This document shows, one piece after another, positions 5,236 through 64,000 of a DNA stretch of 64,000 bases. This DNA comes from Actinomycetota bacterium (GTDB taxonomy: Bacteria; Actinomycetota; UBA4738), in NCBI GenBank assembly GCA_036847185.1, contig DAIUAM010000016.1:993-64992 (forward strand), written 5' to 3'. The stretch's first letter is position 1. Each line of letters begins with the position of its first letter. The notes beneath the pieces are model-generated. The model ran no database searches. It saw only the letters and a program-made list of their open reading frames with translations, and was not told where the DNA came from. The position numbers were made by a program, and so were the translations under genes.

Positions 5236-6448
<1,213 letters not shown>

Positions 6449-14678: not shown

Positions 14679-14710
14679 TCGGCTCCCCACCGCCGCTAGC
14701 ATGGGCAGCC

Positions 14711-15739: not shown

Positions 15740-15960
15740 GCCAGGGGGCTGGCCCCGAAGGACCACGTCCACGTGGTTCGAAAGGATGGAACTCGGACTA
15801 TTCCGTCTTCCGCTCATTGCGAGGGGCGGAGCCGCTCTTCAGAGTGCTTCGTGGCAGCCGCTTAGGCAATCCGCGCCCCGGACCAGGCGCGAACGTGGAT
15901 CGCGACTGTTGACAGAGTTCGAGGTCTGTTCCGCAGGCGGGGGGTTGCAGGCGGACCGAG

Positions 15961-15990
15961 GGGCCCGGCCTCCATCGGGGGGCCGGGCCC
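15961..15990 (+). terminator. perfect 10-bp stem hairpin (GGGCCCGGCC-N10-GGCCGGGCCC) followed by TTTCC
   Basis: Read directly from the sequence. It lies ~220 bp downstream of the oxidase gene, at the edge of the lower-GC island. Confidence 0.4.
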
Positions 15991-16126
15991 TTTCCATTCC
16001 CGTGGAATCATTCGGACTGCCGAGAGGAGTGTCTGGTCTTTCAGGGCATTGGCGACAGAAGTCCGGGGGAAAGAGATGGGGCCGAGCTCGCGCCGGCCCC
16101 ATCCTTTCTGCTCTTGCCACTGGGGC

Positions 16127-17398: not shown

Positions 17399-17588
17399 GC
17401 CCTTGCTCCTTTCCTGATCTCGGAATCCGGGCGTCCGAGGGGCGATCGATACGGGCTTACCCATCTACTGACACGCCTCCCTCCTGTGGGCTAGTCATAT
17501 ATACCTGATAGAGATTATCTAGTCAAATTAGGGGGGTTATGTACTTGACGCACGGCTGCGGAAGATGTATTCTTCATGTTGTGAACAC

Positions 17589-17774
17589 CTACTTGGACGG
17601 CTTCGGAGGCTCTACCTGCGGTTTCGGTTCTTTCCCAATCTCCCGGTCAACATGTTCGATGACCTTCTTTGGGAACAACTTGCGCATTGCCTCGTCCGTT
17701 GTCCATTCGGTCGGGTGTCGCTTCTTCCTAGGCATGGGGGCCTCCAAGTGAACGAACCGAAGCCGCTGACGCAC
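17589..17774 (-). CDS. small basic hypothetical protein inside the IS left arm (possibly MPRKKRHPTEW... from an internal start)
   Basis: 61-aa ORF in low-GC DNA just upstream of the transposase. No recognisable family. Could be non-coding IS sequence. Confidence 0.15.
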   Translation of the reverse strand: MRQRLRFVHLEAPMPRKKRHPTEWTTDEAMRKLFPKKVIEHVDREIGKEPKPQVEPPKPSK

Positions 17775-17792
17775 GTGAACGGCAAGCAGGAG

Positions 17793-18695
17793 ATGGACCT
17801 AATGAAGCTGATCGACCGCTTCGGGTCAGAGGACCGCTGCCGTGAGTACCTGATTCACCTTCGCTGGCCCGAGGGACCGGAGTGCGTAAAGTGCGGCTCC
17901 AAGTCGCTGTCGTGGATCTCCACTCGGAACCAGTTCGACTGCAACTCATGCCGCGCTCGATTCTCGGCGACGGCGGGGACCGTGTTCCACGATTCCCACC
18001 TTCCCCTCCGGAAGTGGTTCCTCGCCACCTACATGATGGTCGAGGCTAAGAAGGGCGTCAGCGCGAACCAGTTGAAGCGGACGCTCGGCACGTCGTACAA
18101 GACGGCGTGGTATCTGTGCCATCGCATCCGCTCGGCCATGATGGGCTCGAGCCCCGAGCGGCTCCAAGGGACCGTCGAGATAGATGAAACGTTCCTCGGC
18201 GGCAAGGTCAAGAGCGGGAGCAAGCCCGCCATGGAAGCCGCTCGGCGGAAGACCACCAACAAGGTCATGGTCATGGGGGCATTGGAGGAAGGTGGACAGA
18301 TTCGCCTCAAGGCAGTAGGCAAGCGAACCGTAGCCTCGACACGCTCGGTCGATGCGTTCCTTGCCGATGCCGTCGTGAACGGAGTTCGGCTCTACTCCGA
18401 CCAGTCCAGCGCCTATGCCCACCTTCCGAACCATGAGTCGGTGGATCACAGCACCGATGAATGGGTTCGGGGCGACGTGACGACGAACGGCATTGAGTCG
18501 GCGTGGTCGCTGCTCAAGCGGTCCATCGTCGGGAGCTATCACCAGCTCTCCGAGAAACACTTGAGCGCCTACCTGGACGAATTCGAGTTCCGGTTCAACA
18601 ACCGGGAGAACCCCTACCTGTTCCGAGACACTCTGCTCGCGCTCATTCATGCGGACGCTCTCCCGTATCGGGAATTGGTCGAAGCTTCACGGTGA
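17793..18695 (+). CDS. IS1595-family (ISXO2-like) transposase
   Basis: N-terminal zinc-ribbon (CVKCGS...CNSCR) and a DDE ISXO2-like domain (IDETFLGG...YSDQSSAY...TNGIESAWSLLKR). Confidence 0.85.
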   Translation: MDLMKLIDRFGSEDRCREYLIHLRWPEGPECVKCGSKSLSWISTRNQFDCNSCRARFSATAGTVFHDSHLPLRKWFLATYMMVEAKKGVSANQLKRTLGTSYKTAWYLCHRIRSAMMGSSPERLQGTVEIDETFLGGKVKSGSKPAMEAARRKTTNKVMVMGALEEGGQIRLKAVGKRTVASTRSVDAFLADAVVNGVRLYSDQSSAYAHLPNHESVDHSTDEWVRGDVTTNGIESAWSLLKRSIVGSYHQLSEKHLSAYLDEFEFRFNNRENPYLFRDTLLALIHADALPYRELVEASR

Positions 18696-19449
18696 AGGAT
18701 CCCCAACCGACGCGCGATGGTTCGTCAGGTATTTGGTACCAGTCCACAACGTAGGTTCCGCTCTCCGCTTTGGCGGAAGGGAAGTCATCGGGATAGTCGC
18801 AACGAGGCCAGCGCCGCATCGGATTGCCCCACCCGGATTCGGCGACGGCAGGAGCGAACATCTCAAATCGCTCGGCCCTCTTGTTCGCGATGTGGCACAT
18901 GAGATCGGAACGGTGACCCCACTCCTCATCCATCGTCCCGTCCTGATGCTCATCCCGATTCGGACTAACCATCCGTAGGCGAATTCCGCCCCTGCCGTTC
19001 ATGGAAACCTCGAACTCCCAGCCTGCCGCGCTTCCCACATCCACACGCGTCAGTTGCAGTTCCTTTCGAGCCATGTGGTACGGGATGCGCAGGTACTGCC
19101 AAGCCACGACTAGAACCCCGTACAGCAGGAAGGCGCCGAGAAGAACTAGCAGCGACTGAATCAAGTACTTCTCCGCGCCGCTTGTGTGTCGCTGAAATGC
19201 GAAGTAGAGAGCGGCCGCCACCGCCGCCGAAAATGCGGCTCCGACCAGCACTCCCTGCGGGGTGCAGAAGACGTGTTTCCAAGCCCTCGACGCCGCCATT
19301 GATACACGCGCGAGTGGGTTCGGCACGCTCGGATTGTACACCGAGTCATGGCCGCCGCCGTGCATGAAGTACATAACCCCCCAAATTAGACCAGTCAGAG
19401 GGCCTGCCAACACCGCGCCGCAGACAGTCCGATGACGAGAGAGGGACAA
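18643..19449 (-). CDS. hypothetical membrane protein (2 TM helices plus a soluble domain); its C-terminal codons are read from IS sequence
   Basis: Hydrophobic segments (AVLAGPLTGLIWGVMYF; LLVLLGAFLLYGVLVVAW). The last ~17 codons overlap the end of the transposase gene on the opposite strand. Confidence 0.45.
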   Translation of the reverse strand: MSLSRHRTVCGAVLAGPLTGLIWGVMYFMHGGGHDSVYNPSVPNPLARVSMAASRAWKHVFCTPQGVLVGAAFSAAVAAALYFAFQRHTSGAEKYLIQSLLVLLGAFLLYGVLVVAWQYLRIPYHMARKELQLTRVDVGSAAGWEFEVSMNGRGGIRLRMVSPNRDEHQDGTMDEEWGHRSDLMCHIANKRAERFEMFAPAVAESGWGNPMRRWPRCDYPDDFPSAKAESGTYVVDWYQIPDEPSRVGWGSFTVKLRPIPDTGERPHE

Positions 19450-19550
19450 CCGAGGCGGCGAGTTGGGCGACGCTACAGGGATCCCGGCCGTCGCCGTGAG
19501 CCCGCCGGGGCCACCCGGTCCTCACCATCCCGGACCCCTCCACGGTGGGC

Positions 19551-20038
19551 CGTATCCTGGCCGCCGCCGAGGGCGAAGTGTTCCACGCCCCGCTCGTCCT
19601 GGCCGCCTCGACCGGGATGCGCCGGGGCGAGGTGCTCGGGCTCTCCTGGCGGGACGTCGAGGAGGCTGGCCTGGTCCGGATCAGCGCCACCTTGCAGCGG
19701 AACGCCGGCTGCTCGCGGGGCCCGACTGGAACGACCGCGGCCTGGTGTTCGATCGGGACGATGGGCGACCACTGGATCGGGGCCATTTCTCGCACCGCTT
19801 CCACAGGCTCGCCATTGCAGAGGGGTGCTCTGAGGTCCGCGTGCACGATCTGCGGCACGCCTTCGCGACGACGCTGCTGGCCAGCGGCAAGGTGCACCCG
19901 AAAGTCGGCTCCGAGGCCCTCGGGCACGCGTCCGTCGGCTTCACGATGGACGTCTACGCGAGCGTGCTTCCCTCGATGCAGCAGGCCGCCGCGGAGGCCA
20001 TACAGGAGGCTCTCGGCGGAGTGGTGACCAGTCTGTGA
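19551..20038 (+). pseudogene. tyrosine-recombinase (phage-type integrase) remnant: catalytic domain only, frameshifted
   Basis: Box I (TGMRRGEVLGLSWRDV) is in one frame. Box II/III (VHDLRHAFATTLL...LGHASVGFTMDVYASV) is in another frame. No N-terminal domains. Lies next to the 3' end of tRNA-Leu. Confidence 0.7.
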
Positions 20039-20103
20039 CGAACGAGACGACTCGGGGCGGGTGGCCCTTCGGGCGCCTTCCCGTCTCCGCAGGTAGATAC
20101 AGG

Positions 20104-20190
20104 TGCCGGGAGGGGGAGTTGAACCCCCACGCCCTTGCGGGCGCCGGATTTTGAGTCCGGTGCGTCTGCCAGTTCCGCCATCCCGGCGAG
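20104..20190 (-). tRNA. tRNA-Leu (anticodon CAA), class II with long variable arm
   Basis: Reverse complement reads GCCGGGA...anticodon loop CTCAAAA...GGGGGTTCAACTCCCCC TCCCGGC A CC. Cloverleaf built by hand. Confidence 0.8.
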
Positions 20191-20388
20191 CGGACCGGCT
20201 CGGCCGGTCGGGGCGAGTGTAGCGAAGGGCCGGGCGCCGGGCGACGATTGGTCCCGCGGAGAGGCGGACCTCGGACCCGGTGGAGAAGGTGCATTGGAAC
20301 GGCGGATGGGCTAGATTTCGCGAGCGGGCGGAGCGGGGAGGCTTCGACACCTCGCCATCATGTCTCTGGTTCGGAGGGGGGTAGGGAG

Positions 20389-35977: not shown

Positions 35978-36169
35978 GCCTCCGGAGTCGCTCCGGTCCG
36001 TGGGGGCTCCATCACGTCGACCTGGTCGAGTGCGACCTCGTCGGGGCAGGCTGGGAACCGGCGGCGGATCCCGGTTCGGAGTGCCGACTCCACCTGGTGC
36101 CGGCGCGATCTCGGAGGCTCCAACCGCGCAGGTCAGAGCGTGTCACCGGCGGCGCCTACAATCGGCGGC

Positions 36170-38197
36170 ATGGCCCCTGACTTCGCCCTCGTCTCCGAGT
36201 TCGAGGCCTCCGGCGACCAGCCGACGGCGATCGGACAGCTGGCCGTCGGCGTGCTCGGCGGCGACCGCTACCAGACCCTCCTGGGAGTCACGGGCAGCGG
36301 GAAGACCCGCACGATCGCCGGGGTGATCGAACGCGTCCGCAAGCCGACGCTGGTGATCGCCCCGAACAAGTCGCTGGCCGCCCAGCTGGCCAACGAGTTC
36401 CGCGAGCTGTTCCCCGAGAGCGCGGTCGAGTACTTCGTCAGCTACTACGACTACTACCAGCCCGAGGCGTACGTCCCGCAGACCGATACCTACATCGAGA
36501 AGGACAGCTCGATCAACGACGAGATCGAACGCCTCCGGCACTCCGCCACCGCGGCGCTCCTGACCCGGCGGGACGTGATCATCGTGGCGTCCGTGTCCTG
36601 CATCTACGGGCTGGGCACGCCCGAGGAGTACATGGGCCAGGTGCTCCGGGTGATCAAGGGGGTTCCCCTGGACCGCGACTGGGCGATCCGGCGGCTCACC
36701 AACATCCAGTATCAGCGAACGAACGGCGACCTGGCCAGGGGGCGGTTCCGGGTTCGGGGCGACACCATCGAGGTCCACCCCGCGTACGACGAGACCATGG
36801 TCCACGTCGAGCTGTGGGGCGACCAGGTCGACCGCATCGTGCAGATGGACCTGGTGACGGGCGAGGTGCTCGCCGACCACCAGGAGCTGTGGATCTACCC
36901 GGCCACGCACTACGTCGCCTCCGAGGATCGCCTGCACCGGGCCATCGAGTCCATCCAGGAAGAGCTGGGCTCGCGGCTGGCATTCCTCGAATCCGAGAAC
37001 AAGCTGCTCGAAGCCCAGCGGCTGCGGATGCGCACGAACTACGACCTGGAGATGCTGCGAGAGGTCGGGTTCTGCAACGGGATCGAGAACTACGCCCGGC
37101 ACATCGACGGCCGGAACCCGGGGACCGCTCCGTACACGCTGCTCGACTACTTCCCTCAGGATTGGCTGTGCGTGATCGACGAGTCGCATGTCACGGTGCC
37201 CCAGCTCCACGGGATGTACGAGGGCGATATGTCCCGCAAGCGCACGCTGGTCGAGTTCGGCTTCCGGCTGCCGTCGGCCATGGACAACCGTCCCCTGCAG
37301 TTCGAAGAGTTCACCGACCGGATCCAGCAGGTCGTGTTCATGTCGGCCACCCCGGGGCCCTACGAGCTGCGGGTGTCCTCGCGGGTCGCGGAGCAGGTCG
37401 TCCGGCCGACCGGGTTGATCGATCCCGAGGTGGAGGTGCGCCCGACGAAGGGCCAGGTCGACGATCTGATCGAGGAGATCCGCCGGCGGGTCGAGGCGGG
37501 TGCCCGGGTGCTGGTGACGACGCTGACGAAGAAGATGGCCGAAGACCTCACCGATTACCTGATCGAGATGGGGCTGAAAGTCCGGTACCTCCATTCGGAG
37601 GTCGATACGATCCAGCGGATCGAGATCCTCCGGGACCTCCGGCTGGGTGAGTTCGACGTCCTGGTCGGGATCAACCTCCTGCGGGAGGGCCTGGACCTGC
37701 CCGAGGTGTCCCTGGTGGCCATCCTGGACGCCGACAAGGAGGGGTTCCTGCGGAGCGAGACCTCGCTGATCCAGACGATCGGGCGGGCCGCGCGCAACGT
37801 CGACGGCAAGGTATTGATGTACGCCGACACCGTGACCGATTCGATGCGGACGGCCATCTCCGAGACCATGCGCCGGCGCGGCATCCAGATGGCGTACAAC
37901 ACCGAACACGGGATCGACCCGCAGACCATCCGCCGCCGCGTCTCGGACATCCTGCTCTCGCTCCAGGGCGACCAGAAGCGCCGCCCGACCGCCACACCCA
38001 CCCGCGGTCGGCGAGGCAGGCGGCGGGCCGAGCCGGCGATGCCCCGGGAGGAGCTCGAACGCCTCATCCAGACGCTGGAGGAGGAGATGCACGAGGCGGC
38101 GAAGGATCTCCGGTTCGAATACGCCGCCCGGTTGCGCGACGAGGTGCTGGAGCTGAAGCGCGAGCTGACCGCGCTCAAGGAAGCCGGGGTGCGCTAG
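36170..38197 (+). CDS. uvrB: excinuclease ABC subunit B
   Basis: GVTGSGKT and the beta-hairpin region [13 protein letters not shown]. Confidence 0.95.
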
Positions 38198-38248
38198 GGG
38201 TATGCCACGAGCCCTCCCCCAGGGGAACCGAAGATCGAGCGACGACCG

Positions 38249-39334
38249 GTGAGCGTGCTCTCCGTCCGGGCCCCGCTGGCCTGGCTGGGGCCCGGACGGC
38301 TTGTCGAGGATGCGCTCGTGGTGTTGGACGGCGGGCGCGTGGCCTACGCGGGGCCGGCGGCAGAGATCTCCGTGGTGGTGGCGGGGGAGCGCGGCGCCGA
38401 AGGGCTCAGCGGCCGCGCGGCGCCGCCACAAGCGGACCAGGAGATCCGTTTCGACGGGTTCGTGATGCCGGGCGTGGTCGATCGCCATGTCCACATCGGA
38501 CTCTCCGACCCGGGGGCCGTCCTGGCCGGGGGGGTGGTCGCGGTCCGTGATCTCGCCTGGCCGCCGGACGTGGTGTTCCCGCTGGCCGAAGCGTCCGAGA
38601 CAACCGCCTTCAACGGGCCGCTGATCCGCGCGGCGGGCGCCATGCTCACCTGCCCGGGTGGCTATCCCACGCGGGCCGCCTGGGCTCCTTCGGGCACCGG
38701 TTTGGAGGTCCTCGGGGCCGGCGACGCAGCCGCCCGGGCCGCCGACCTGCTGGCGCGAGGCGCCGTGGTGCTGAAGGTCGCGTTGAACGGGGATGTTGGG
38801 CCGACGGTGACCGATGCGGAGCTCGTGGCGATCTGTGACGTTGCCCACCAGGCCGGGACGATCGTGACCGCCCACGCGCAGGGTCGCGGCCAGGCGGCGC
38901 GCGCGCTGGGAGCCGGCGTCGACGAGCTCGCGCATTGTCCCTGGTCCGAACACCTGTCGGACGAGCTCATCGAAGCCATGGCCAGGCGGATGCGGATCGT
39001 TTCGACGCTGGACATCCACTCCGGCGGCAGGGACACACCGGAGCTGCGGACGGCGGTCGACAACCTCTCGCGGTTCCTGGCCGCCGGGGGGCGGGTCGCG
39101 TACGGGACCGACCTCGGGAACGGGCCGATCCCCCCCGGCATCCATGTCGGGGAGGCGTTCCACCTCTACCGCGCGGGGCTCGGGCCCGAGCGGTTGCTGG
39201 AGGCGCTCACCTTCCGGCCGCTGGCCGAAGGCGAACCGGCTGATCTGATCGGCCTGGCCCGCGATCCGCGCGAGGATCTGGGAGCCCTCGGCGAGGTACG
39301 ACTCGTGGTGCGGGGGGGCAGGCGCTACCGCTGA
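38249..39334 (+). CDS. amidohydrolase-family metal-dependent hydrolase
   Basis: GVVDRHVHIG (HxH metal motif) plus downstream TAHAQG and AHCPW His ligands. Confidence 0.65.
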   Translation: MSVLSVRAPLAWLGPGRLVEDALVVLDGGRVAYAGPAAEISVVVAGERGAEGLSGRAAPPQADQEIRFDGFVMPGVVDRHVHIGLSDPGAVLAGGVVAVRDLAWPPDVVFPLAEASETTAFNGPLIRAAGAMLTCPGGYPTRAAWAPSGTGLEVLGAGDAAARAADLLARGAVVLKVALNGDVGPTVTDAELVAICDVAHQAGTIVTAHAQGRGQAARALGAGVDELAHCPWSEHLSDELIEAMARRMRIVSTLDIHSGGRDTPELRTAVDNLSRFLAAGGRVAYGTDLGNGPIPPGIHVGEAFHLYRAGLGPERLLEALTFRPLAEGEPADLIGLARDPREDLGALGEVRLVVRGGRRYR

Positions 39335-39370
39335 ACGGCGGCCGCGTGCCGGGTCGCCGCGTGCGGGGGC

Positions 39371-40324
39371 TCACTCCCGGGCGCGGATCCGCTGGTGGGG
39401 GTCGAGGGCATCGCGCAACCCGTCGCCCAGGAAGTTCACGCAGAGCACAGTGGCCAGGATGAACAGGCCGGGAAACAGGGTCAGGTACGGCGATGTGAGG
39501 GCGAAGGGTTGCGCCTCCAGCAGGAGGTTCCCCCATGTTGGCAGCGGTGGCTGCACGCCGAACCCCAGGAACGAGAGCGCGGACTCCGCCAGGATCGCCC
39601 CGGCGATGCCGAGGGTGGCGTTCACGATGATCGGTCCCAACGCGTTCGGCAGCATCTGGCCGAAGATGATCCGCGGGTTCGAGGCCCCCACGGACCGGGC
39701 GGCCTCCACGAACTCCTTCTCCTTCATGGACAGGAACACACCCCGAACGATGCGCGCCAGCGGCATCCAGAAGAACAGGGAGAGGATCACCACGATCCCC
39801 AGCGCCCCGCGGTCCGCGATGAACGGCACCCGCGACCCCACGATGAGGATGACCAGGAACGGAAGGGCCAGGAAGAGGTCGGTCACCCGCATCAGCAGGT
39901 TGTCGATCCAGCCGCCGTAGTAGCCGGCCAGGGCGCCCACGATCGAACCGATGACGCCCGCGGAGAGGGCGACCGAGACACCGACCATCAGCGAGATCCG
40001 CCCGCCGTACAGGACCCGGGTGAAGACGTCGCGGCCGATCTCGTCCACGCCGAACCAGTGCTTCCAGCTCGGGCCGCTGTGCGCGAACGGCGCCACGATC
40101 CGTCCGGCGGTGAAGGTCTGGTGGTACGAGTCCTTGGATAGGAGGGGAACCACGACCGAGGCCACCCCGATCAGGAGCAGCAGGACCGCGCTGGCCAGGG
40201 CGAGCCGGTGGCGGCGGAAGCGGCGCCACGCGAGCTGGCGGGTGGAGAGAGACTCCCCGGAAGCCGCGACGGGGGCCGCAGCAAGCGGCTGGAGTGGCTC
40301 GATGATGTCGGTATCGATGGCCAT
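39371..40324 (-). CDS. orphan oligopeptide/dipeptide ABC transporter permease (OppC/DppC paralogue)
   Basis: ~75% identical to the OppC encoded at 59666..60640. No cognate SBP, OppB or ATPase genes nearby. Confidence 0.85.
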   Translation of the reverse strand: MAIDTDIIEPLQPLAAAPVAASGESLSTRQLAWRRFRRHRLALASAVLLLLIGVASVVVPLLSKDSYHQTFTAGRIVAPFAHSGPSWKHWFGVDEIGRDVFTRVLYGGRISLMVGVSVALSAGVIGSIVGALAGYYGGWIDNLLMRVTDLFLALPFLVILIVGSRVPFIADRGALGIVVILSLFFWMPLARIVRGVFLSMKEKEFVEAARSVGASNPRIIFGQMLPNALGPIIVNATLGIAGAILAESALSFLGFGVQPPLPTWGNLLLEAQPFALTSPYLTLFPGLFILATVLCVNFLGDGLRDALDPHQRIRARE

Positions 40325-40469
40325 CGGCCCCCTCCCGTCCCTCCGCCTGTGGCCCGGTGGCCGCCGAGGCGAAACCGCCCAAAGGATTACACAGGTGACG
40401 CCACCGGTCAAGATTGAATGCTGGTTATGGCCGCCGGCATGCGCCACGCGTAGACTGCCATCCGGTTCC

Positions 40470-41051
40470 ATGGCAGAGACCGACGGATTCGACGAGCCGG
40501 GAGGACGCCGCCCCGCGCCGGGCTCGCTCCGGTTGGTCCAGCTCTTCCTCAACTCCCACGACATCCTTCCTGGGATCGACACGATCACCACACCCGAGGA
40601 GCTGAAGGCCTGGCTCCGCCGGCGGGACCTCGTCTCGTCCTCGGTGCGGGTCCGGTCCGATGACCTCCGCCGCGCGCTCGCCGTTCGCGAGGCGCTCCGC
40701 GGCCTGGCGGTGCGCAACGGCGGCGAGGTGCCGGACGGCGACCCCGTGGCGGCGCTCAACCGGGTCGCCCGTCGGGCATCGCTCCGGGTGACCTTCTCGC
40801 CGGACGGCCACGCGACGCTGGAGCCGTCGCGGCGCGATGTCGACGGCGCGCTGGCCGTGATCCTCGCGGGGGTGGCCCTGTCCATGGTCGAGGGCACGTG
40901 GCATCGGCTGAAGGCGTGCCGGAACTGCCGGTGGGCCTTCTACGACCACTCGAAGAACCGCTCGGGGGCATGGTGCACCATGTCGGTGTGTGGGAACCGG
41001 AGCAAGGCCCTGGCGTTCCGTTCGCGCCACCGGGCCGAAGCTGTCCGGTAG
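40470..41051 (+). CDS. CGNR zinc-finger (ABATE-domain) protein
   Basis: C-terminal CRNCRWAFYDHSKNRSGAWCTMSVCGNRSKA matches the CGNR zinc-finger signature. Confidence 0.75.
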   Translation: MAETDGFDEPGGRRPAPGSLRLVQLFLNSHDILPGIDTITTPEELKAWLRRRDLVSSSVRVRSDDLRRALAVREALRGLAVRNGGEVPDGDPVAALNRVARRASLRVTFSPDGHATLEPSRRDVDGALAVILAGVALSMVEGTWHRLKACRNCRWAFYDHSKNRSGAWCTMSVCGNRSKALAFRSRHRAEAVR

Positions 41052-41076
41052 GGGCACCGGGCCGGTTCAGAAAACG

Positions 41077-42219
41077 CTAGAGGATCTCGCGCAGCGCTTC
41101 GAACAGCCGCTCGATGTCGGCGTCGTTGCTGAAGAAGTGCGGCGACACGCGGATCCCGTCGCCCCGGAAGTCGGTGCACACGTTCCGGTCGAGGAGCGCG
41201 TGACAGACCTTCTCCGCCTCGTCGCCCACCCCGATGTTCACCACGCCGCCGCGTGCGTTCCGGTCCCGGGGCGAGCGGACGGGCAGCCCGGCCTCGTCGG
41301 CCTGGGCGATCACGTGGTCGATCAGGTCCTGTTGGTGTTCGCGGGTGTTCTGCGGGCCGACCTCGGCGATGATGTCGAGCCCGCCCTGGGCGACGAACGC
41401 CACCGGCGCCGCCGGCGTCCCGTGCTCCAGCCGCCGGGCCGACGGATGGTAATCGAGGTGCTGCAGGTCGAACGAGAACGGCTCCTTCGTGGCGAACCAT
41501 CCGGTGACCAGCGGCTCGAGCGAGGACAGCAGGTCCCGGCGGGCGTACAGGAACGTGAGGCCCGGCCCCCCACACAGCCACTTGAGGACGCCCGCGGTGT
41601 AGAAGTCGCAGCCGAGATCGTGGACGTCGACGGGCAGGATGCCGGCACCGTGGAAGTCGTCGACGACGGACCAGGCCCCGGCGTCGCGGGCCATCCGGCA
41701 GACCTCCTTCGCGTCGATCAGCGCGCTGGTTCGGTACAGGACGCGGTTCGTCACCACCAGGGCCGTGTCCTCGTCGATCGCGTCGCGGTAGGCCTCCATC
41801 GGGACGGTCAATCCGTCGGACTTCAGGAAGACCGGTTCGGCCCCCAGGCGCCGGTAGGCCAGGGCGACGTGCCCGTCCGTGGGGAAGTCCAGCTCGGAGA
41901 GGATGACCTTCTTCCGCTTCGAGAAGTCCACGCACGAGAAGATCGCCCCGAGGGCCAGCGAGACGTTGACGGTGATGGCGAGCTCGTCCGCGTCAGCGCC
42001 GACCAGACGGCCGAACGTCTCCTTCACCGACCGCATGCGGGGGAAGATGTCCTCGACCCACACCAGGTCGGGCGCGCCCTTCGTGGCCCATGCGTCCATG
42101 TACTCCTGGAGGTAGTCCTGGGAGCGGTTCGACACGGGTCCGAGGGAGGCGCTGATCAGGTAGGCCTTGCGGTTCACGACCGGGAACTCGTCGCGGTAGG
42201 ACTCGAAGCTTCGGCTCAC
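41077..42219 (-). CDS. class V aminotransferase-fold PLP-dependent enzyme (kynureninase/cysteine-desulfurase-like)
   Basis: Overall fold type I/class V pattern. Family-level call only. Confidence 0.6.
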   Translation of the reverse strand: MSRSFESYRDEFPVVNRKAYLISASLGPVSNRSQDYLQEYMDAWATKGAPDLVWVEDIFPRMRSVKETFGRLVGADADELAITVNVSLALGAIFSCVDFSKRKKVILSELDFPTDGHVALAYRRLGAEPVFLKSDGLTVPMEAYRDAIDEDTALVVTNRVLYRTSALIDAKEVCRMARDAGAWSVVDDFHGAGILPVDVHDLGCDFYTAGVLKWLCGGPGLTFLYARRDLLSSLEPLVTGWFATKEPFSFDLQHLDYHPSARRLEHGTPAAPVAFVAQGGLDIIAEVGPQNTREHQQDLIDHVIAQADEAGLPVRSPRDRNARGGVVNIGVGDEAEKVCHALLDRNVCTDFRGDGIRVSPHFFSNDADIERLFEALREIL

Positions 42220-42223
42220 CGGT

Positions 42224-42517
42224 TCACCCCCGGCCGTGCCTGCGGAGGTAGTCGATGTACAGGGGACGGAGCGCGTCGGCCAGCGGGCCCTCGTCGGCGT
42301 GGTCCAGGTCGGACAGCAGCGGGACGAGGTCGCCCACCCCCACGTCGGCTTCCGACTTCTGGAGCTCGCCCGCCGCCGCCTCGGCGACGGGGATGGCCTT
42401 GATCAGCCGCCACAGGAAGACCACGTCCAGCCGGTGCTCGGCCAGGCGGACCGCCCGGTCGTGGAGCTCCTTGGACGACAGGGAATCGAGGGCCGTGTCC
42501 TGTCCTTCCTCCGTCAC
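42224..42517 (-). CDS. small acidic hypothetical protein (97 aa, no Cys), co-oriented 5 nt upstream of the aminotransferase
   Basis: ORF with coupled spacing to the downstream gene. No recognisable motifs. Confidence 0.4.
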   Translation of the reverse strand: MTEEGQDTALDSLSSKELHDRAVRLAEHRLDVVFLWRLIKAIPVAEAAAGELQKSEADVGVGDLVPLLSDLDHADEGPLADALRPLYIDYLRRHGRG

Positions 42518-42618
42518 GGCAGGAGCCTACCCGTCGGGTGGGCGCGACGGCAAAGGCGCGGTCCCCCACCCAGCGGGGCCGGGAATTTCGACTGGACGGC
42601 CCTCGTTAGAATGCCCGC

Positions 42619-45516
<2,898 letters not shown>

Positions 45517-45517
45517 A

Positions 45518-47146
45518 ATGAGCGCCGCCGTGGTCCAGACCCGATCGATCCTCGCGAGGCACTGGCGGGCGTTCGCCGCCCTGGTTGCGGCCACCATCGC
45601 CGGTGCCGCCTGCGCGCCGGGCGGGAGCCCGCCCAGCTTCCCGGTGGTCGCCGCCACCGGCCTTCGCGTCCAGGTCGTCGATTCGCTGTACGACGCAGGC
45701 CGCTCCCCGTCGGTCGCGTTGGACAAGAACGGCAACCCGGAGGTCGCCTACCTCCTGTACCAGCCGGTCCTGAAGAAGGGGGATCTGCCCCCGCCGATCG
45801 TGGGCGGCGCGCCGCAACCCCCGTCCGTGATGCAAGCGGCGTATTCCGGCGGGACCTGGACCCGGGTGCCCGCCAGCGGCGGCGTCTCGCTCGGGCAGTC
45901 GGAGGCCGGCAAGGCGACGGCGATCGCGAACAAGGACGGCCAGGCCATCCCGGGGGTCAACGACGCCATGACCCTGGACGCGGCCGGAAAGCACCACATC
46001 GTGTGGGCCACCCCGTCCGGGCTCTTCTACACCGACGACTCCAACGGGACCTACGGGAGCCCGACGAAGATCAGCTCCGCACAGACGTTCGGGGCGTCCA
46101 TCGCGGTGGCCCCCGACGGTACTTCGTGGATCGCCTACTACGAAGGGTCGACCGTCAAGGTGGCAAGCGGCTCGGGCAGCACGTTCACGGAAGAGCAGGT
46201 CGCCACGACCAGCGGCGCGCCGGGAGCCACCGCGGGCGTGACGGCCATCGGAGCAGGGTCGAGCGGCCCGCAGGTCGCGTACGGCGACAACGGCACGACG
46301 GTGGTTGCCTCGAAGGTCGGGAACGCCTGGACGCCGACGCCGATCACGGGACCCGGCGGCTACGGTCTGTCGATGGCCCTCGACAAGAGCGGGAATCCGA
46401 ACCTCGCTTACTACGACCAGTCCGGCAACGTCTACGAGGTCGGATTGAACGGGGGAGGCCAGACGAAGCTGGCCACCGTGGAGCCGGCGAAGGGTACGAC
46501 GGGCCCTTCGGCGGGCTGGTCGACCGGGATCGCGGTCGATGGCTCCGGGGTCGACTACGTCGCCTGGTCCGACATCGGGCGAGGACTGGTCTACGTGGCG
46601 ACGAACGGGAGCGGCTCGTTCCAGACCCACCCCGTCCAGGGGAGCTTCGGCGGCCTCAACCCCTCGATCGCGGTCTCGGCCGACGCGCAGCACCTGGCGG
46701 TGGCGTGGTACGACGGGCCGGACGGCGACCTCGACATCGCGACGCCGCCGGCCGGCAGCCTCGCCCTGGCCTTCTCGCCCGCCCCCGTGGTCCTGCCGTC
46801 GGCGGGCCCGACCGCCCCACAGTGCTCGCCCGGCAGCTCGACCGACCTCTCCATCGCCGCCCCGGTCGGCGCCGCCGCCAAGGGATTCGACACGACCTGC
46901 CTCGCGGTCGCGGCCGGGAAGACGTTCACGGTGACCTTCGCGAACGACGACACCGGCGTGCCGCACGACTGGGCGCTCTTCGCGAACTCCGCCGCCACGA
47001 GCCCGATCGGCGGGGCCACCAGCCCGACCCCGGTCAGTCCGGGCAGCTCGCAGAAATACTCGCTGACGGCCCTGAAGGCAGGCACGTACTTCTACCACTG
47101 CGACTTCCACCAGACCACGATGACCGGCACGCTCGTCGTGAAGTAA
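45518..47146 (+). CDS. lipoprotein with 7-bladed-propeller-like domain and C-terminal type-1-copper cupredoxin domain
   Basis: Lipobox-like IAGAAC. Seven ~40-aa repeats ([DG].G.P.[VL]A[YW]...G..Y). C-terminal GVPHDW...YFYHCDFHQTTMTG carries H, C, H, M type 1 Cu ligands. Starts 1 nt after the uvrA stop. Confidence 0.7.
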   Translation: MSAAVVQTRSILARHWRAFAALVAATIAGAACAPGGSPPSFPVVAATGLRVQVVDSLYDAGRSPSVALDKNGNPEVAYLLYQPVLKKGDLPPPIVGGAPQPPSVMQAAYSGGTWTRVPASGGVSLGQSEAGKATAIANKDGQAIPGVNDAMTLDAAGKHHIVWATPSGLFYTDDSNGTYGSPTKISSAQTFGASIAVAPDGTSWIAYYEGSTVKVASGSGSTFTEEQVATTSGAPGATAGVTAIGAGSSGPQVAYGDNGTTVVASKVGNAWTPTPITGPGGYGLSMALDKSGNPNLAYYDQSGNVYEVGLNGGGQTKLATVEPAKGTTGPSAGWSTGIAVDGSGVDYVAWSDIGRGLVYVATNGSGSFQTHPVQGSFGGLNPSIAVSADAQHLAVAWYDGPDGDLDIATPPAGSLALAFSPAPVVLPSAGPTAPQCSPGSSTDLSIAAPVGAAAKGFDTTCLAVAAGKTFTVTFANDDTGVPHDWALFANSAATSPIGGATSPTPVSPGSSQKYSLTALKAGTYFYHCDFHQTTMTGTLVVK

Positions 47147-47164
47147 CCGGCTCGCGGGCCGCTC

Positions 47165-47641
47165 CTACCCTCGCGTCCCTACCGGATTCCGCCCCGGCCC
47201 GGCCGGGCCGGCAAGCTGCGTGAGGTCCCGCCCCGAGACGAGCGCCTCCGCAACGGTCGCCGTGTCCAACGACGACCGAAGGGCCTGGGCCGCCTCGAAC
47301 CAGGCCGGATGCACCGGGCACGGATCGTCGGGACGGCAGGTGGTGCCGCGCAGGGTGCATCGCTGGGGGAGAAGGGCCCCCTCAGAGGCTTCCACGACCT
47401 CGAGCAAGGTGATCTCCGACGGTGGGCGGGCCAGGCGGTATCCCCCCTCCCGCCCCGCTCGCGCTTCGACCAGGCCGGCTCGAACCGTGTCCCCGAGGAC
47501 CTGTGGCGTGTAGCTCACGGGGATGGACATCGAGCCCGAGATCTCCCGGATCTTGCGGTACGAACCGTCCCCCCAGGCCTCCCCCAGGTAGAGGATCGCC
47601 CGCACCGCGTAGTCCGCACGTCTCGAAAGTTGCAGGTCCAT
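47165..47641 (-). CDS. Rrf2-family transcriptional regulator (NsrR/IscR-like, Cys-x6-Cys-x5-Cys-x2-His cluster ligands)
   Basis: N-terminal wHTH (LSRRADYAVRAILYL). CTLRGTTCRPDDPCPVH cluster-binding motif. Divergent from nirK. Confidence 0.8.
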   Translation of the reverse strand: MDLQLSRRADYAVRAILYLGEAWGDGSYRKIREISGSMSIPVSYTPQVLGDTVRAGLVEARAGREGGYRLARPPSEITLLEVVEASEGALLPQRCTLRGTTCRPDDPCPVHPAWFEAAQALRSSLDTATVAEALVSGRDLTQLAGPAGPGRNPVGTRG

Positions 47642-47677
47642 CGGCCCGATCATACCCCTCGTTCAGTCTCTAGCCTA

Positions 47678-47700
47678 ACGTGTAGGAGTAAGCTACACGT
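47678..47700. promoter_or_regulatory. perfect inverted repeat ACGTGTAG-N7-CTACACGT in the rrf2/nirK divergent intergenic region (candidate Rrf2 operator)
   Basis: Read directly from the sequence. ~40 bp upstream of both the nirK ATG (47741) and the rrf2 start (47641). Confidence 0.5.
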
Positions 47701-47740
47701 GTTGGAGTCGAGGAGCACGCGGTCGGAAAGAGAGGTCCGG

Positions 47741-49222
47741 ATGGATGCGAACAGGAGCGAACGAGGCAACGCTGGGATCGCGGTCCTTGTGGTGCTGTCC
47801 CTGACGGCCCTGGGGGTCGGGACGGCCGGCGTGGTCCGCGGCGGGGCGCGGTCCTCGCGAGCGGTCCAGGCTGCTTCCGTGCCCTACCTGATGGCGGGGA
47901 GCGGCACCGGCCACGTGGTGAGCGTCGACCTGACGGCGAACGACACGACCATCCAGGAGATCGCTCCCGGCGTGAAGTTCAACGCCTGGACCTTCAACGG
48001 CACCGCACCGGGTCCCGTGATCCGCGTCCAGCAGGGCGACACCGTGCAGTTCACCCTCCACAACGCGTCGAAGAACATGTCCCATTCGATCGACTTCCAC
48101 GCCGCGCAGACGCCGTGGGACGTGAACTATCAGGCGGTGGCGCCTGGCAAGGTCTTCACCTTCAGTTGGGTGGCTCGGTTCCCGGGCGTGTTCATGTACC
48201 ACTGCGGGACCCCGCCGGTCATCCAGCACATCTCGAACGGGATGTACGGCGCGATCGTCGTCGAGCCCGCCCACACGCTCGCCCCGGCCCGCGAATACGT
48301 CTTGGTGCAGAGCGAGTTCTACCCTTCGGCCCAGCCGACGGGCGGCGTTTACTACGGCGACTACAACGCGATGCTGGCCAACCAGCCCCAGTACATCGTG
48401 TTCAACGGAGAGGCCAACCAGTTCAAGGACCACCCCTTGGTCGCCAGGCCGGGGGAGCTGATCCGGCTCTGGGTGGTGGACGCCGGCCCCAGCCACTGGT
48501 CGGCCTTCCACGTGATCGGCGCGCTGTTCGACAGCGCGTACGCGAGCGGGAACCCGGCGAACGCCGTGCACGGCGTGCAGACCGTAACCATCGCTCCCGG
48601 TGACGGGTGGATGATGGAGCTCCGGATCCCCGACGCCGGGCTGTATCCGTTCGTCACGCACTCCTTCGCCGATGCGGGGAGGGGGGCGCTGGGGATCATC
48701 AAGGTGGACCCGAAGGCGCCTGCGGCTCCGAAGTCGTACCCGACGATGGGCGACCCGATGACGGCCGGGGTGACGGCTGATACCGCGACCGGGACCACCG
48801 GCCCGAGCACCGGCGGCACCGGGATGGCCGGTATGCCCATGCCTTCGCCGGCGGCCGGCGGGACGTCTTCGCCTCCCGGTGCGGCCTCGTGCATGCCGAT
48901 GGGAACGAAGCTCGAGATCACCGCACCGGCCGGGGCGAGCACGTCGGGGTTCGACAAGACGTGCCTGGCCGCCCCCGCCGGGTTGACGTTCACCGTGACC
49001 TTCAAGAACCTGGACACGGGCATCCCGCACAACTTCGCGATCTACTCGGACTCGAACGCCACCACGTGGCTGGGCGGGGCGGAGAGCGCGGCGAAGATCG
49101 TGATGGGACCGGGGAGCGTCACCTACACGATCAAAGGGCTGCCTGCCGGCCAGTACTTCTTCCGGTGCGACATCCACCCCCAGACCATGAAGGGCGTGTT
49201 CATAGTCGCGGGCGGCCACTGA
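47741..49222 (+). CDS. nirK: copper-containing nitrite reductase (NirK) with Met-rich linker and extra C-terminal cupredoxin domain
   Basis: Signal/TM N-terminus. HNASKNMSHSIDFHAA (T1/T2 Cu His). MYHCGTPPVIQHISNGMYG (His-Cys...His...Met spacing identical to NirK). A MxxM-rich linker follows, then a second cupredoxin (GIPHNF...YFFRCDIHPQTMKG). Good SD (AAGAGAGG). Confidence 0.85.
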   Translation: MDANRSERGNAGIAVLVVLSLTALGVGTAGVVRGGARSSRAVQAASVPYLMAGSGTGHVVSVDLTANDTTIQEIAPGVKFNAWTFNGTAPGPVIRVQQGDTVQFTLHNASKNMSHSIDFHAAQTPWDVNYQAVAPGKVFTFSWVARFPGVFMYHCGTPPVIQHISNGMYGAIVVEPAHTLAPAREYVLVQSEFYPSAQPTGGVYYGDYNAMLANQPQYIVFNGEANQFKDHPLVARPGELIRLWVVDAGPSHWSAFHVIGALFDSAYASGNPANAVHGVQTVTIAPGDGWMMELRIPDAGLYPFVTHSFADAGRGALGIIKVDPKAPAAPKSYPTMGDPMTAGVTADTATGTTGPSTGGTGMAGMPMPSPAAGGTSSPPGAASCMPMGTKLEITAPAGASTSGFDKTCLAAPAGLTFTVTFKNLDTGIPHNFAIYSDSNATTWLGGAESAAKIVMGPGSVTYTIKGLPAGQYFFRCDIHPQTMKGVFIVAGGH

Positions 49223-49318
49223 CCGGACGGCACGCGGGCGGGGAGGGTTTGCGGAAAGACAGAACCTCCCCGTCCGCTTGCGGGGTGGGGCCCCGGCTCG
49301 CTCCTACAATGGTCTAGC

Positions 49319-51226
49319 GTGAGCGTCCGACGGCCGGAACCGTCCTCCATCCCCGACGAGCCGGGCGCGTACCTCTTCCGGGACTCCGACGGTCGCGTCG
49401 TCTACGTGGGGAAGGCGATCTCCCTCCGCAAACGGCTCGCTTCGTACTGGAGCCGCCCGCTGCATCCGCGCACCGAGGCGATGGTCGAGCACGCCGTCAC
49501 GGTCGACTGGATCCTGGCGAAGAACGAGGTCGACGCGCTGATGCTCGAGTACAACCTCATCAAGTCGCACCGGCCACGGTTCAACATCCGCTACCGCGAC
49601 GACAAGTCGTACCCGTACCTCGCGCTGACCGTGGGGGAGCGTTGGCCCCGGGCCAGGGTGATGCGGGGACCCAAGCGCAAAGGGGTCCGGTACTTCGGGC
49701 CGTACGGCCACGCCTACGCGATCCGGGAGACCCTCGACGCGCTGACCCGGGTCTTTCCTGTTCGAACGTGCAGCGACGGGTTCTTCGACCAGCGGGCCCG
49801 GGCGGGACGGCCATGCCTCTACTACGACATCGGGCGATGCGCCGGCCCGTGCGTGCCGGCATCGACCGGGGTCACCGAGGCGAGCTACCGCGAACAGGTC
49901 GACGCGCTGTCCGACTTCCTGGCCGGGCGACACAAGCCGATCCTGTCTCGCCTCGACGTGGAGATGCGGGGCGCCGCCGAGTCGCTCGAGTTCGAACGCG
50001 CCGCCAAGCTCCGGGACCAGCTCGCCGCCGCCCGCAAGGCGATCGAGAGCCAGGAGATGGTGCTCTCCCGCCGGGAGGACCTCGACGTCATCGGGATCGA
50101 AGAGGACGACCTCGAAGCCGCGTTGCAGGTGTTCTTCGTCCGGGGCGGCCGGGTGATGGGCCGGCGCGGGTGGGTGGTCGACAAGGTGGAGGACATCCAG
50201 CTCCCTGGGCTGATCTCGTCGTTCGTGCGCGAGCTGTACATGGAGCGCGAAGAGGTCCCCCGGCGCGTGCTGGTGCCGGTCCTTCCCGAGGAGCAGGAGC
50301 TGCTCGAGGAGTGGCTGTCCCGGGTCCGGGGCTCCCGCGTTCAGATCTCCGTCCCGGCCCGTGGCGACGGCCGCCGCCTGCTCCAGACGGTCACCCAGAA
50401 CGCGAAGGAAGCCTTCGTCCGCCACAAGCTGAAGCGGTCGTCGGACTTCGCTGCGCGGTCACGGGCGCTGCAGGAGCTGGGCGACGCTCTCGGCCTGCCG
50501 AACGGCCCGCTGCGCATCGAGTGCTACGACATCTCCAACCTCGGCCCGACGGACAAGGTCGCCTCGATGGTCGTGTTCGAGGACGGCCTGCCGAAGCGCA
50601 GCGATTACCGAAAGTTCGCCATCAAGAGCGTGCCGGGACAAGACGACTTTGCAAGCATGGAGGAAGTGCTCCGACGACGCCTGGCCCGCCTGCGCAGCGA
50701 AGGGGAACCGGCCGGCCCGGCCGGCCCAGAAGAAGAGACGCCCCGGCGGCGGCGGCGGTTCGCGTACTTCCCGTCGCTCATCGTGGTGGACGGAGGACGC
50801 GGGCAGCTCTCGGTGGCCGAACGGGTGCTGGCCGACTTCGGGCTCGCCATCCCTGTGGTCGGGCTCGCCAAGCGGCTGGAGGAGGTCTACCTCCCCGGCC
50901 AACCCCAACCCCTGCAGATCCCTCGCGGGTCGGAGGCGCTGTTCGTGCTCCAGCACATCCGGGACGAGGCGCACCGGTTCGCCATCACCTTCCACCGGCA
51001 GAAGCGGCAGAAACGCGCGCTCAGGTCCGTCCTGGACGATATCCCCGGCGTGGGCCCGTCGCGGAAGAAGGCCCTGCTCCGGCGATTCGGGTCGGTGGCG
51101 CGGCTGCGGACCGCCTCGTCAGAGGAGATCGACGGCACCCCGGGGGTGGGCCGATCCCTGGCCGGGGTGATCCATGAGCACCTCCATCGCGTAGAAGCAG
51201 TGACGGACGTACGGAGGGTGGGATGA
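49319..51226 (+). CDS. uvrC: excinuclease ABC subunit C
   Basis: GIY-YIG N-terminus (PGAYLFRDSDGRVVYVGKA), UvrBC-interaction region and a C-terminal HhH. Confidence 0.93.
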   Translation: MSVRRPEPSSIPDEPGAYLFRDSDGRVVYVGKAISLRKRLASYWSRPLHPRTEAMVEHAVTVDWILAKNEVDALMLEYNLIKSHRPRFNIRYRDDKSYPYLALTVGERWPRARVMRGPKRKGVRYFGPYGHAYAIRETLDALTRVFPVRTCSDGFFDQRARAGRPCLYYDIGRCAGPCVPASTGVTEASYREQVDALSDFLAGRHKPILSRLDVEMRGAAESLEFERAAKLRDQLAAARKAIESQEMVLSRREDLDVIGIEEDDLEAALQVFFVRGGRVMGRRGWVVDKVEDIQLPGLISSFVRELYMEREEVPRRVLVPVLPEEQELLEEWLSRVRGSRVQISVPARGDGRRLLQTVTQNAKEAFVRHKLKRSSDFAARSRALQELGDALGLPNGPLRIECYDISNLGPTDKVASMVVFEDGLPKRSDYRKFAIKSVPGQDDFASMEEVLRRRLARLRSEGEPAGPAGPEEETPRRRRRFAYFPSLIVVDGGRGQLSVAERVLADFGLAIPVVGLAKRLEEVYLPGQPQPLQIPRGSEALFVLQHIRDEAHRFAITFHRQKRQKRALRSVLDDIPGVGPSRKKALLRRFGSVARLRTASSEEIDGTPGVGRSLAGVIHEHLHRVEAVTDVRRVG

Positions 51227-63213: not shown

Positions 63214-63300
63214 GTCGGAGTGGCGGAACTAGGTAGACGCGCTAGGTTGAGGGCCTAGTGGGCTTCATCGCCCGTGGGGGTTCAAATCCCCCCTCCGACA
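63214..63300 (+). tRNA. tRNA-Leu (anticodon GAG), class II
   Basis: GTCGGAG acceptor. D-stem GCG/CGC. Anticodon loop TTGAGGG. Long variable arm. T-arm GGGGGTTCAAATCCCCC. CTCCGAC-A-CC. Confidence 0.8.
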
Positions 63301-63387
63301 CCGCCTCTGAGCAGCGGAAACGCGAAGGGCCCGGAACGGTCCGCCACCGTCCGGGCCTTCGTCATTCCCCCAGGATTCCCCCGTGCG

Positions 63388-64000
63388 CTACTCGGCGGCT
63401 CCTTCGAACAGCGCGCCCAACCGCTCAGCCGCCTCGGCCGCGACCTCGTCACCGTCGTGCAGGTAGATGTCCGCCGTGGTGGCGATGGTGGCGTGCCCGA
63501 GCTGGCGGCTCACAACGTCCAGCCGCGTCCCCGATCGGAGCGAAAGCTCGGCGTAGGTGTGCCGGGCTCCGTGCAGCCCTATCGGCCTGACTTCGGCCTT
63601 CGCAACCAGCCGCTTCCAACGCGCCAGCAGGGTGTCCGGGTGGACGACCGCCCCGTCCGGCTCGGTGACCATCCACGGTGCATCGAGTCCCAATCCGCCA
63701 CTCGTCTTCCACGCCGGCCCGAAGGCCAGCCGTTCGGTGGACTGGCGAGCCTTCCACGCTCCGAGCGCTGCGGCTGTCGCTGCATCGAACCGGACCCGGC
63801 GCGTCCGGCGGGACTTCGTGGTGCCTCGCACGTACAGCCGCGGTGTCCGGCTGACTGGACGAGGGCGGACGAGGACCTGGCGAGCCACGGTGATGGCCGC
63901 GCCGTCGAGGTCGGTCCACCGCATCCCTAACAGCTCGCCTCGGCGTACTCCGGTCGCTAGCGCCAGTCGCCACACACCCGCCAGCCGGTCCTCGGCCGCG
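63388..64000 (-). CDS. tyrosine recombinase/integrase, C-terminal catalytic domain (gene continues beyond window end)
   Basis: Box I (TGVRRGELLGMRWTDL), HGARHTYAEL, and LGHATIATTADIYLH containing the catalytic Tyr. Stop lies 88 bp from the tRNA-Leu(GAG) 3' end. Confidence 0.8.
   Translation of the reverse strand, partial: AAEDRLAGVWRLALATGVRRGELLGMRWTDLDGAAITVARQVLVRPRPVSRTPRLYVRGTTKSRRTRRVRFDAATAAALGAWKARQSTERLAFGPAWKTSGGLGLDAPWMVTEPDGAVVHPDTLLARWKRLVAKAEVRPIGLHGARHTYAELSLRSGTRLDVVSRQLGHATIATTADIYLHDGDEVAAEAAERLGALFEGAAE

Follow-up and report, generated by a model that had tools for sequence, protein, structure and literature searches.

A predicted propeller-cupredoxin lipoprotein encoded between uvrA and uvrC in uncultured Actinomycetota

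The window analysed here is a stretch of 64,000 nucleotides from an Actinomycetota bacterium (GenBank assembly GCA_036847185.1, contig DAIUAM010000016.1, positions 993 to 64,992 of the forward strand), and our subject is one of its genes, which we call X. The gene occupies 45518..47146 of the forward strand and encodes, from an ATG start, 542 amino acids (aa) with the predicted make-up of a lipoprotein in which a flexible linker joins a seven-bladed beta-propeller to a type-1-copper cupredoxin. Directly upstream on the same strand lies uvrA (42619..45516), whose translation ends at a TAG stop (45514-16), 1 nt before the ATG of X at 45518. On the other side, the stop codon of X is 18 nt from that of a convergent gene for an Rrf2-family regulator (47165..47653, reverse strand), which forms a divergent pair with nirK (47741..49222, forward strand); uvrC (49319..51226, forward strand) stands beyond them. 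A scan for promoters and terminators around the locus gave nothing above the shuffled expectation. An initial annotation, made from the DNA letters, had taken X for a possible redox partner or scaffold of NirK and had traced its cupredoxin to a duplication within the locus. Comparison with about 100 related loci gives a different picture, in which X is an inherited neighbour of uvrA and uvrC and nirK is, on the simplest reading, the newcomer.

The first 32 residues of X (45518..45613, forward strand) have the form of a signal peptide with a lipobox, a hydrophobic stretch running into AGAAC, whose last residue, Cys32, is the predicted site of lipidation. The lipobox reads ...TIAGAAC32-APGG; in an alignment of 48 family sequences, the cysteine is conserved in at least 90% and the consensus is AACAP. 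Homologues also keep the N-terminal MSAA..., and with a permissive pattern a lipobox-like motif is found in 66 of the 73 short representatives among the matches of a propeller profile (see below). At the level of such patterns, the proposal that X is a lipoprotein holds, and we treat it as a predicted one.

The propeller spans aa 50-409 (45665..46744, forward strand). Seven segments of the protein fit the motif G..S.A.D..G...VAY.D..G...VA..G, in line with the seven repeats of about 40 aa reported initially. Comparisons of blade pairs by BLAST within X are non-significant (E ~1), and the DNA copies (repeat family D2) are 61-73% identical; with the similarity among blades so weak, the repeats are supported by the motif alignment and by structure prediction instead. 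An AlphaFold2 model built on 48 homologues (predicted local distance difference test, pLDDT, 84.2; predicted template modelling score, pTM, 0.68) predicts 28 strands from residue 50 to residue 409, arranged as seven four-stranded blades at aa 59-118, 148-186, 191-230, 242-279, 282-322, 336-372 and 379-409. The N-terminal strand 50-55 completes blade 7 and closes the ring, and residues 1-46 and 414-433 are disordered, both with pLDDT below 50. The seven-bladed propeller suspected from the repeats is thus also what the modelling predicts.

A Foldseek search of the PDB with this model returned solely beta-propellers, the top full-length matches (template modelling score, TM, 0.69-0.72) being seven-bladed PLL/PHL lectins. 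The structural neighbours include enzymes with seven-bladed propellers (CylK, Vgb lyase, polysaccharide lyases and hydrazine synthase) and, at a poor TM of 0.3-0.37, sialidases. All these likenesses are generic, with 7-14% identity over many unrelated propellers, among them PLL/PHL lectins, Vgb lyase, YncE and WD40 proteins, and none of the catalytic or sugar-binding residues of such propellers was matched in X. X itself has no match to the BNR family of Pfam; one of its homologues (P0037) has a precomputed match to PF15892.

Conservation is uneven along the protein. Within the family, the mean pairwise identity is 54-57% for blades 1, 2 and 7, 52.8% for the cupredoxin, 43-48% for blades 3-6 and 34% for the Pro/Ala-rich linker (~aa 410-435; 46745..46822, forward strand), the least conserved region. 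Blades 7, 1 and 2 are neighbours in the ring, and the sector that they form carries a set of conserved polar residues: D55, D59, R62, Q100, D154, H159, H160, Y171, D174, D399 and N402. Such a pattern favours a defined binding surface, one that probably serves for docking, though a small ligand or a metal site is possible. Across the family, the propeller has no conserved Cys or Met and a single conserved His pair, H159/H160, which speaks against a metal-cluster propeller of any known kind, NosZ-like or other; the domain appears to have no evident cofactor site.

The last part of the protein (aa 436-542; 46823..47143, forward strand) is the cupredoxin module. Its reading as a cupredoxin of about 110 aa, with type 1 copper and not CuA, was part of the initial annotation and is well supported. 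Pfam places Cupredoxin_1 (PF13473, 37 bits against a cut-off of 27) and Copper-bind (PF00127, 26.9 bits against 21.2) on aa 453-542, and in the AlphaFold2 model, aa 443-541 are nearly all beta-strand, with one four-residue helix and pLDDT of 88-96. The nearest solved relatives are amicyanin, auracyanin and plastocyanin; the best of them, amicyanin (E 7.7e-6), aligns at the ligand positions H483 (46964-46966), C528 (47099-47101), H531 (47108-47110) and M535 (47120-47122, all on the forward strand). In the 48 family members, H483, C528 and H531 are invariant and M535 is conserved in at least 90%; across the 110 module copies, the His/Cys/His set is never lost, and the Met is missing from a single copy, where the alignment has a gap. 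The ligand loop, YHCDFHQTTM, has the spacing C-x2-H-x3-M and a single Cys, which means type 1 copper instead of CuA, and by its ligand set the site is predicted to be of that type. Another pair of cysteines, C436 and C461, is invariant in the 48-sequence alignment and may form a disulfide. In a distant branch of the family, the propeller is followed by two tandem cupredoxins, giving proteins of ~650-750 aa; both domains have copper ligands and the second lacks the Cys pair (L014, L017-L021, L025, L028, L030, L031, L033, L034, L040, L042-L044, L047, L049, L051, L054 and L064, in our numbering of retrieved loci).

Among 5.8 billion proteins searched, X has 67 relatives, about 60 of them full length and 38-53% identical, and all came from metagenomes or metagenome-assembled genomes (MAGs) of Actinomycetota. 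Their database labels are at most 'plastocyanin' or 'cupredoxin domain-containing protein'. Pfam has no match in the first 450 residues of X, the recognised part being the last 90, and NCBIfam has nothing above its cut-off. Our literature search found no paper on a propeller fused to a type-1-copper cupredoxin, on the X family or on the combination of uvrA, uvrC and plastocyanin. The architecture is a new combination of known parts and the family is uncharacterised; the generic labels and the silence of the literature agree with the earlier description of X as distinct and possibly uncharacterised. Below the NCBIfam cut-off, aa 337-391 (blades 6-7) weakly match the 'PDIAV motif-containing lipoprotein' (NF053835, 23.5 bits against a cut-off of 90); X has NPSIAV in place of PDIAV, and that family may be a distantly related one of propeller lipoproteins.

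The blades themselves are not peculiar to X. A profile made of the propeller matches 19,823 representative proteins at E<=0.001 and 1,201 at E<=1e-30, and the blade type is common to more than 10,000 at E<=1e-10. Half of the top 150 matches are X-type proteins of 500-570 aa, and a cupredoxin is present in 58 of the 73 short ones (<700 aa), most of the rest being fragments. The remaining half consists of surface proteins that contain many propeller stretches and are 700-6,400 aa long. Nine large relatives that we scanned (715-1,056 aa) had no cupredoxin; some showed weak BNR_4 matches and some C-terminal FlgD-Ig domains. Giant proteins of 1,000-6,400 aa (P0198, P0201, P0204, P0221 and others) have the same blade type in as many as 17 matched stretches, and these multi-propeller surface proteins make up a very large and largely unannotated family.

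The cupredoxin module, too, is found elsewhere, and the company it keeps is our main guide to what it does. Our scans of genomes and metagenomes, which used the copper-loop motif as a seed, brought up other carriers of the module as well. One kind is subunit II of cytochrome c oxidase (COX II), in which COX2_TM and COX2 domains with the CuA motif are followed by an extra C-terminal type-1-copper cupredoxin; such fusions occur twice in L065 (module matches at 1848-2147 and 5563-5862) and also in L069, L076 (6763-7062) and L083, and the metagenome scan added contigs L129, L130, L132, L133, L148, L157 and L164. Their carriers include MAGs labelled Nocardiopsaceae and Nocardioidaceae, and we found no description in the literature of a cupredoxin-fused oxidase subunit II in Actinobacteria. 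NirK is another partner, with 12 fusions in the retrieved loci. In a further kind, a membrane protein with several predicted transmembrane helices ends in one to three tandem copies of the module (L067, L070, L071 and L081), possibly a membrane-bound 'copper wire', and in L076 the module stands alone as a lipoprotein of 157 aa. The module is in wide use in Actinomycetota as a C-terminal add-on, and it is mainly because it is fused to two terminal respiratory enzymes that we consider it an electron-transfer domain.

For the genomic context we gathered 107 loci encoding the propeller: 61 from GTDB species representatives (L004-L064), 41 from metagenome contigs (L086-L126) and five from look-ups (L001-L003, L084 and L085). 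One of these, L084, is a MAG contig of the window's own species, with a NirK that is 99% identical, and is left out of counts given over 106 loci; flanks of 6-10 kb were fetched on each side of X where the contig allowed. The conserved order is uvrA-X-uvrC-rapZ. Directly downstream of X stands uvrC in 98 of the 106 loci, the other 8 ending before it, and uvrA is directly upstream in 87 of the 107, with 15 more ending at a contig edge. The genes are tightly packed: the median gap is 51 bp from the stop of X to the start of uvrC (52 loci) and 6 bp from uvrA to X, the start of X being the first start codon in its longest open reading frame, with a 4-bp overlap in seven loci. This order stays in about 100 loci even where the propeller has fallen to 24-30% identity (best tblastn segment). 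In an uncultured lineage of Actinomycetota, X is thus a core gene passed on vertically, and its architecture is apparently universal in that deep lineage, which is known only from MAGs.

Some further features of this region may be recorded here. The three excision-repair genes are clustered in the window (36140-51226) and in L001, L002 and L085, with uvrB, a few genes and then uvrA-X-uvrC. In the window's lineage, uvrC is followed by rapZ-gap-pgk-tpi without yvcK and whiA, which in cultured actinobacteria usually lie between rapZ and gap. One MAG, VAYG01 (isolate AC_52), has two uvrA-X-uvrC loci (L004 and L006), with X proteins 51% and 47% identical to that of the window; the bin may be mixed or the region duplicated.

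We think it somewhat probable, by a narrow balance, that X is a lipid-anchored, extracytoplasmic electron carrier whose propeller docks through blades 7, 1 and 2. The protein would be exported and anchored by a lipid at its N-terminus. With only ~15 residues between Cys32 and the first strand, the propeller would sit close to the membrane and hold the cupredoxin there, and the conserved sector would dock the protein to a partner complex. On its linker of ~25 residues, the cupredoxin could then swing and shuttle single electrons between membrane complexes on the outer face, a role suggested by the fusion of the same module to two terminal respiratory enzymes. There is precedent for lipoproteins at such a place, as LpqE and SodC are bound to the mycobacterial complex III-IV supercomplex at its outer face.

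Several known systems resemble parts of this arrangement. Tethered blue-copper carriers are represented by auracyanin, which works with alternative complex III (PMC7439408, PMC10873879). Carriers of the auracyanin, amicyanin, halocyanin or sulfocyanin type have a single type-1-copper cupredoxin with His/Cys/His/Met ligands, and tethered ones are extracytoplasmic, anchored N-terminally in the membrane or by a lipid and flexibly tethered, as is predicted for X. Unlike them, X has a seven-bladed propeller of ~360 residues between anchor and cupredoxin, and it differs in the C-x2-H-x3-M loop and the extra conserved pair C436/C461. The oxidase fusions recall caa3-type COX II with a fused cytochrome c, since in both a donor domain sits at the C-terminus of subunit II; the carrier is a type-1-copper cupredoxin instead of haem c, and X itself has no oxidase part. 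The analogy supports reading the module as an electron carrier.

The closest match in domain order is NosZ, in which a seven-bladed propeller is likewise followed by a cupredoxin outside the cytoplasm and which is, to our knowledge, the only documented propeller-cupredoxin enzyme. The initial annotation had pointed out this order and had already set X apart from NosZ, a distinction that our results strengthen. The single Cys of the loop does not make a CuA site, and of the seven His of the CuZ set of NosZ there is no counterpart, H159/H160 being the only conserved His in a propeller that is not rich in them. No NosZ model in NCBIfam matched X at E<=1, no nos accessory genes are nearby and, as far as the signal peptide can be read, no twin-arginine motif is evident. 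A NosZ-like or other metallo-propeller enzyme was considered as an identity for X and ruled out, the conserved ligands and the model matches both being missing.

Some points weigh against X as a docked carrier. Electron transfer by X is proposed from the ligand set and the fusion partners of the module. The lipid anchor is likewise predicted, from a sequence pattern. The polar cluster on blades 7, 1 and 2 could be a ligand, metal or catalytic site instead of a docking surface. Finally, the tight and deeply conserved packing with excision-repair genes is explained only as inherited operon structure.

The third of these points leads to a rival that we regard as unlikely but still the strongest of the single alternatives, namely that X is a new redox enzyme, its propeller a catalytic or substrate-binding domain and its cupredoxin a built-in entry or exit for electrons. 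In every other architecture with an identifiable partner, the module sits on a redox enzyme, and X would follow the same logic as NosZ and the NirK and COX II fusions. The conserved polar sector, with its HH pair and several Asp, would suit an active site, and many of the seven-bladed structural neighbours named above are enzymes. On the other hand, without conserved Cys or Met, the propeller has too few His for any known copper, haem or pyrroloquinoline quinone site of a propeller, and X matches no enzyme family of Pfam or NCBIfam. Its blade type is shared with thousands of multi-propeller surface proteins that have no cofactor, and the module is also found on plain membrane anchors without an enzyme.

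A broader proposal, which we offer tentatively and think rather improbable as a whole, is that X is the membrane-docked hub of an all-copper electron network on the cell surface that works without cytochrome c. The propeller would dock on a respiratory complex or bind a substrate, and the operon uvrA-X-uvrC may hint at co-regulation of the redox capacity of the envelope with DNA repair. We know of no soluble cytochrome c in canonical actinobacteria, which use a fused di-haem subunit instead. If the module serves these bacteria as their general mobile electron carrier, it would explain the respiratory wiring of poorly known soil Actinomycetota and would offer a concrete target for expression and spectroscopy.

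The proposal that NirK has in X a dedicated redox partner or scaffold, which would pass electrons to the homologous C-terminal domain of that enzyme, we consider quite improbable. The nirK gene of the window, recognised by Pfam and NCBIfam models, encodes 493 aa with an N-terminal membrane anchor, the two-domain core of a copper nitrite reductase and a C-terminal type-1-copper cupredoxin (~nt 48866-49207). The best PDB match of the core is Geobacillus NirK (226 bits), and the whole protein aligns over its full length with the class III three-domain TsNirK (6HBE). The added cupredoxin of the window's NirK is of the same kind as that of X; X has no nitrite reductase core. In TsNirK, the C-terminal type-1-copper domain is described as the start of an intramolecular electron path to the core, and its copper as Gln-coordinated (PMC6400189), whereas the axial ligand is Met in the modules of both X and the window's NirK. 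The module alone finds auracyanin and plastocyanin in the PDB and not TsNirK. Three-domain enzymes like this one are very common: among 5,845 NirK homologues, nearly all of the best 120 listed have an extra cupredoxin. The NirK of the window thus has a tethered donor domain of its own, as TsNirK does, which speaks against the need for X.

The Rrf2 gene belongs with nirK and not with X. Its product matches Rrf2 of Pfam (99 bits) and TIGR00738 (97.6 bits) and is NsrR-like; its C-x7-C-x5-C motif is one that Fe-S proteins of the Rrf2 family, NsrR among them, typically carry. In the 87 bp that separate the divergent Rrf2 and nirK genes lies a perfect 8-bp inverted repeat, ACGTGTAG-N7-CTACACGT (47678..47700), a likely candidate for the Rrf2 operator; when sought in all fetched loci, it was found elsewhere solely in L084, of the same species. 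X and Rrf2 being convergent, X falls outside the nirK transcription unit. The pair also exists without X, as the divergent Rrf2/nirK arrangement was found on its own in nine other actinomycetotal loci (L066, L068, L073, L075, L078, L079, L131, L135 and L136), and in one MAG, nzgw114, X and Rrf2-nirK are on separate contigs (L016 and L078).

In the window, X is separated from uvrC by 2,172 bp, filled by the divergent pair, while in the relatives uvrC is its direct downstream neighbour. Within the fetched flanks, a nirK core or an Rrf2 gene is near X in 0 of the 106 loci outside the window's species-level clade. Inside that clade, the adjacency is stable on several independent contigs: the X and NirK proteins that cluster at >=90% identity lie together on contigs of 181,218, 34,854, 12,209 and 12,820 bp, and L084 has the same order. 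Beyond these clusters, identity falls to 53% for the nearest X and 59% for the nearest NirK. The simplest reading is that the Rrf2-nirK cassette was inserted once between X and uvrC, in the shallow clade to which the window belongs, and an insertion in one clade makes X and nirK neighbours, not conserved partners. The occurrence of X in other genomes, where it is widespread with uvrC beside it and no nirK, therefore tells against the suggested partnership, of which the neighbourhood leaves only the adjacency itself as support. The case also shows a two-gene Rrf2-nirK cassette moving into a housekeeping operon.

The resemblance of the two cupredoxins is real and had been correctly noticed. Residues 428-541 of X and the C-terminal domain of the window's NirK are identical at 56 of 115 positions (49%, E 2e-28), and since both proteins carry the same module, an exchange of electrons between like cupredoxins would be plausible. 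As a trace of duplication within the locus, however, the similarity is unremarkable. We compared 63 X-type and 117 NirK-type copies of the module. Over a trimmed alignment of 97 columns, the window pair is 46.9% identical, against a mean of 50.1% for all pairs of X and NirK domains from different genomes, 72% of which are at least as similar; by similarity to the window's NirK domain, the X domain next to it ranks 50 among the 63. The closest relatives of the window's X module are other X copies, up to 66% identical. In leave-one-out profile hidden Markov models (HMMs), the NirK domain of the window scores about equally on the X and the NirK profile (137 and 133 bits), so that the two sets do not fall cleanly into separate families. 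A neighbour-joining tree of 112 cupredoxin domains puts the window's NirK among the X domains, but its 93 columns give no reliable resolution, and we relied on the identity distributions and the HMM scores instead. Recent gene conversion between the two regions is ruled out by their DNA, 71% identical over 164 nt. As the window pair is no closer than pairs taken across genomes, the resemblance is family-wide, and the two cupredoxins are best seen as copies of one module widespread in Actinomycetota. The account of a NirK-specific partner born by local duplication fails against the ~100 related loci; what retains its value is a conserved, unstudied architecture and a single cupredoxin module reused on NirK, COX II and membrane anchors.

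We give as little credence to X being a surface protein outside respiration (for example a lectin, adhesin or assembly factor), with a cupredoxin for the binding or delivery of copper. Sialidase-like folds and the PLL/PHL lectins, which bind sugars, are indeed among the best superpositions, blades of this family are typically found in large surface proteins, and propeller lipoproteins such as Ycf48 and BamB are known as assembly factors. The structural matches are generic, though, and the complete and invariant His/Cys/His/Met set is a signature of electron transfer and not of copper chaperones; nor would such a role sit easily with the same module being fused to COX II and NirK. Least probable is a tie of X to nucleotide excision repair or its stress control, for instance as an envelope sensor of redox state or copper co-expressed with uvrA and uvrC: the order of the three genes, with its tight or overlapping gaps, does persist despite the divergence of the propeller, but X is predicted to lie outside the membrane, apart from the DNA, it has no DNA-binding or signalling domain, and conserved clusters of unrelated housekeeping genes are common in Actinomycetota, with uvrC-rapZ-gap-pgk-tpi an example here.

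Away from this locus, the window has signs of mobile elements in two places. The stretch 14700-20200 has a lower G+C content (0.61-0.64, against ~0.70) and contains an IS1595-family transposase (17565-18695, forward strand), open reading frames without a Pfam match (14696-15817 and 16127-17464, reverse strand) and a phage-integrase fragment (19463-20038, forward strand), and a tRNA gene (20104-20187, reverse strand) adjoins it; the stretch is probably a mobile element that has integrated. The other place, 63214-63975 at the end of the window, has a second tRNA gene (63214-63300, forward strand) directly followed by a gene of the phage-integrase family (63388-63975, reverse strand), and probably marks the edge of another such element.

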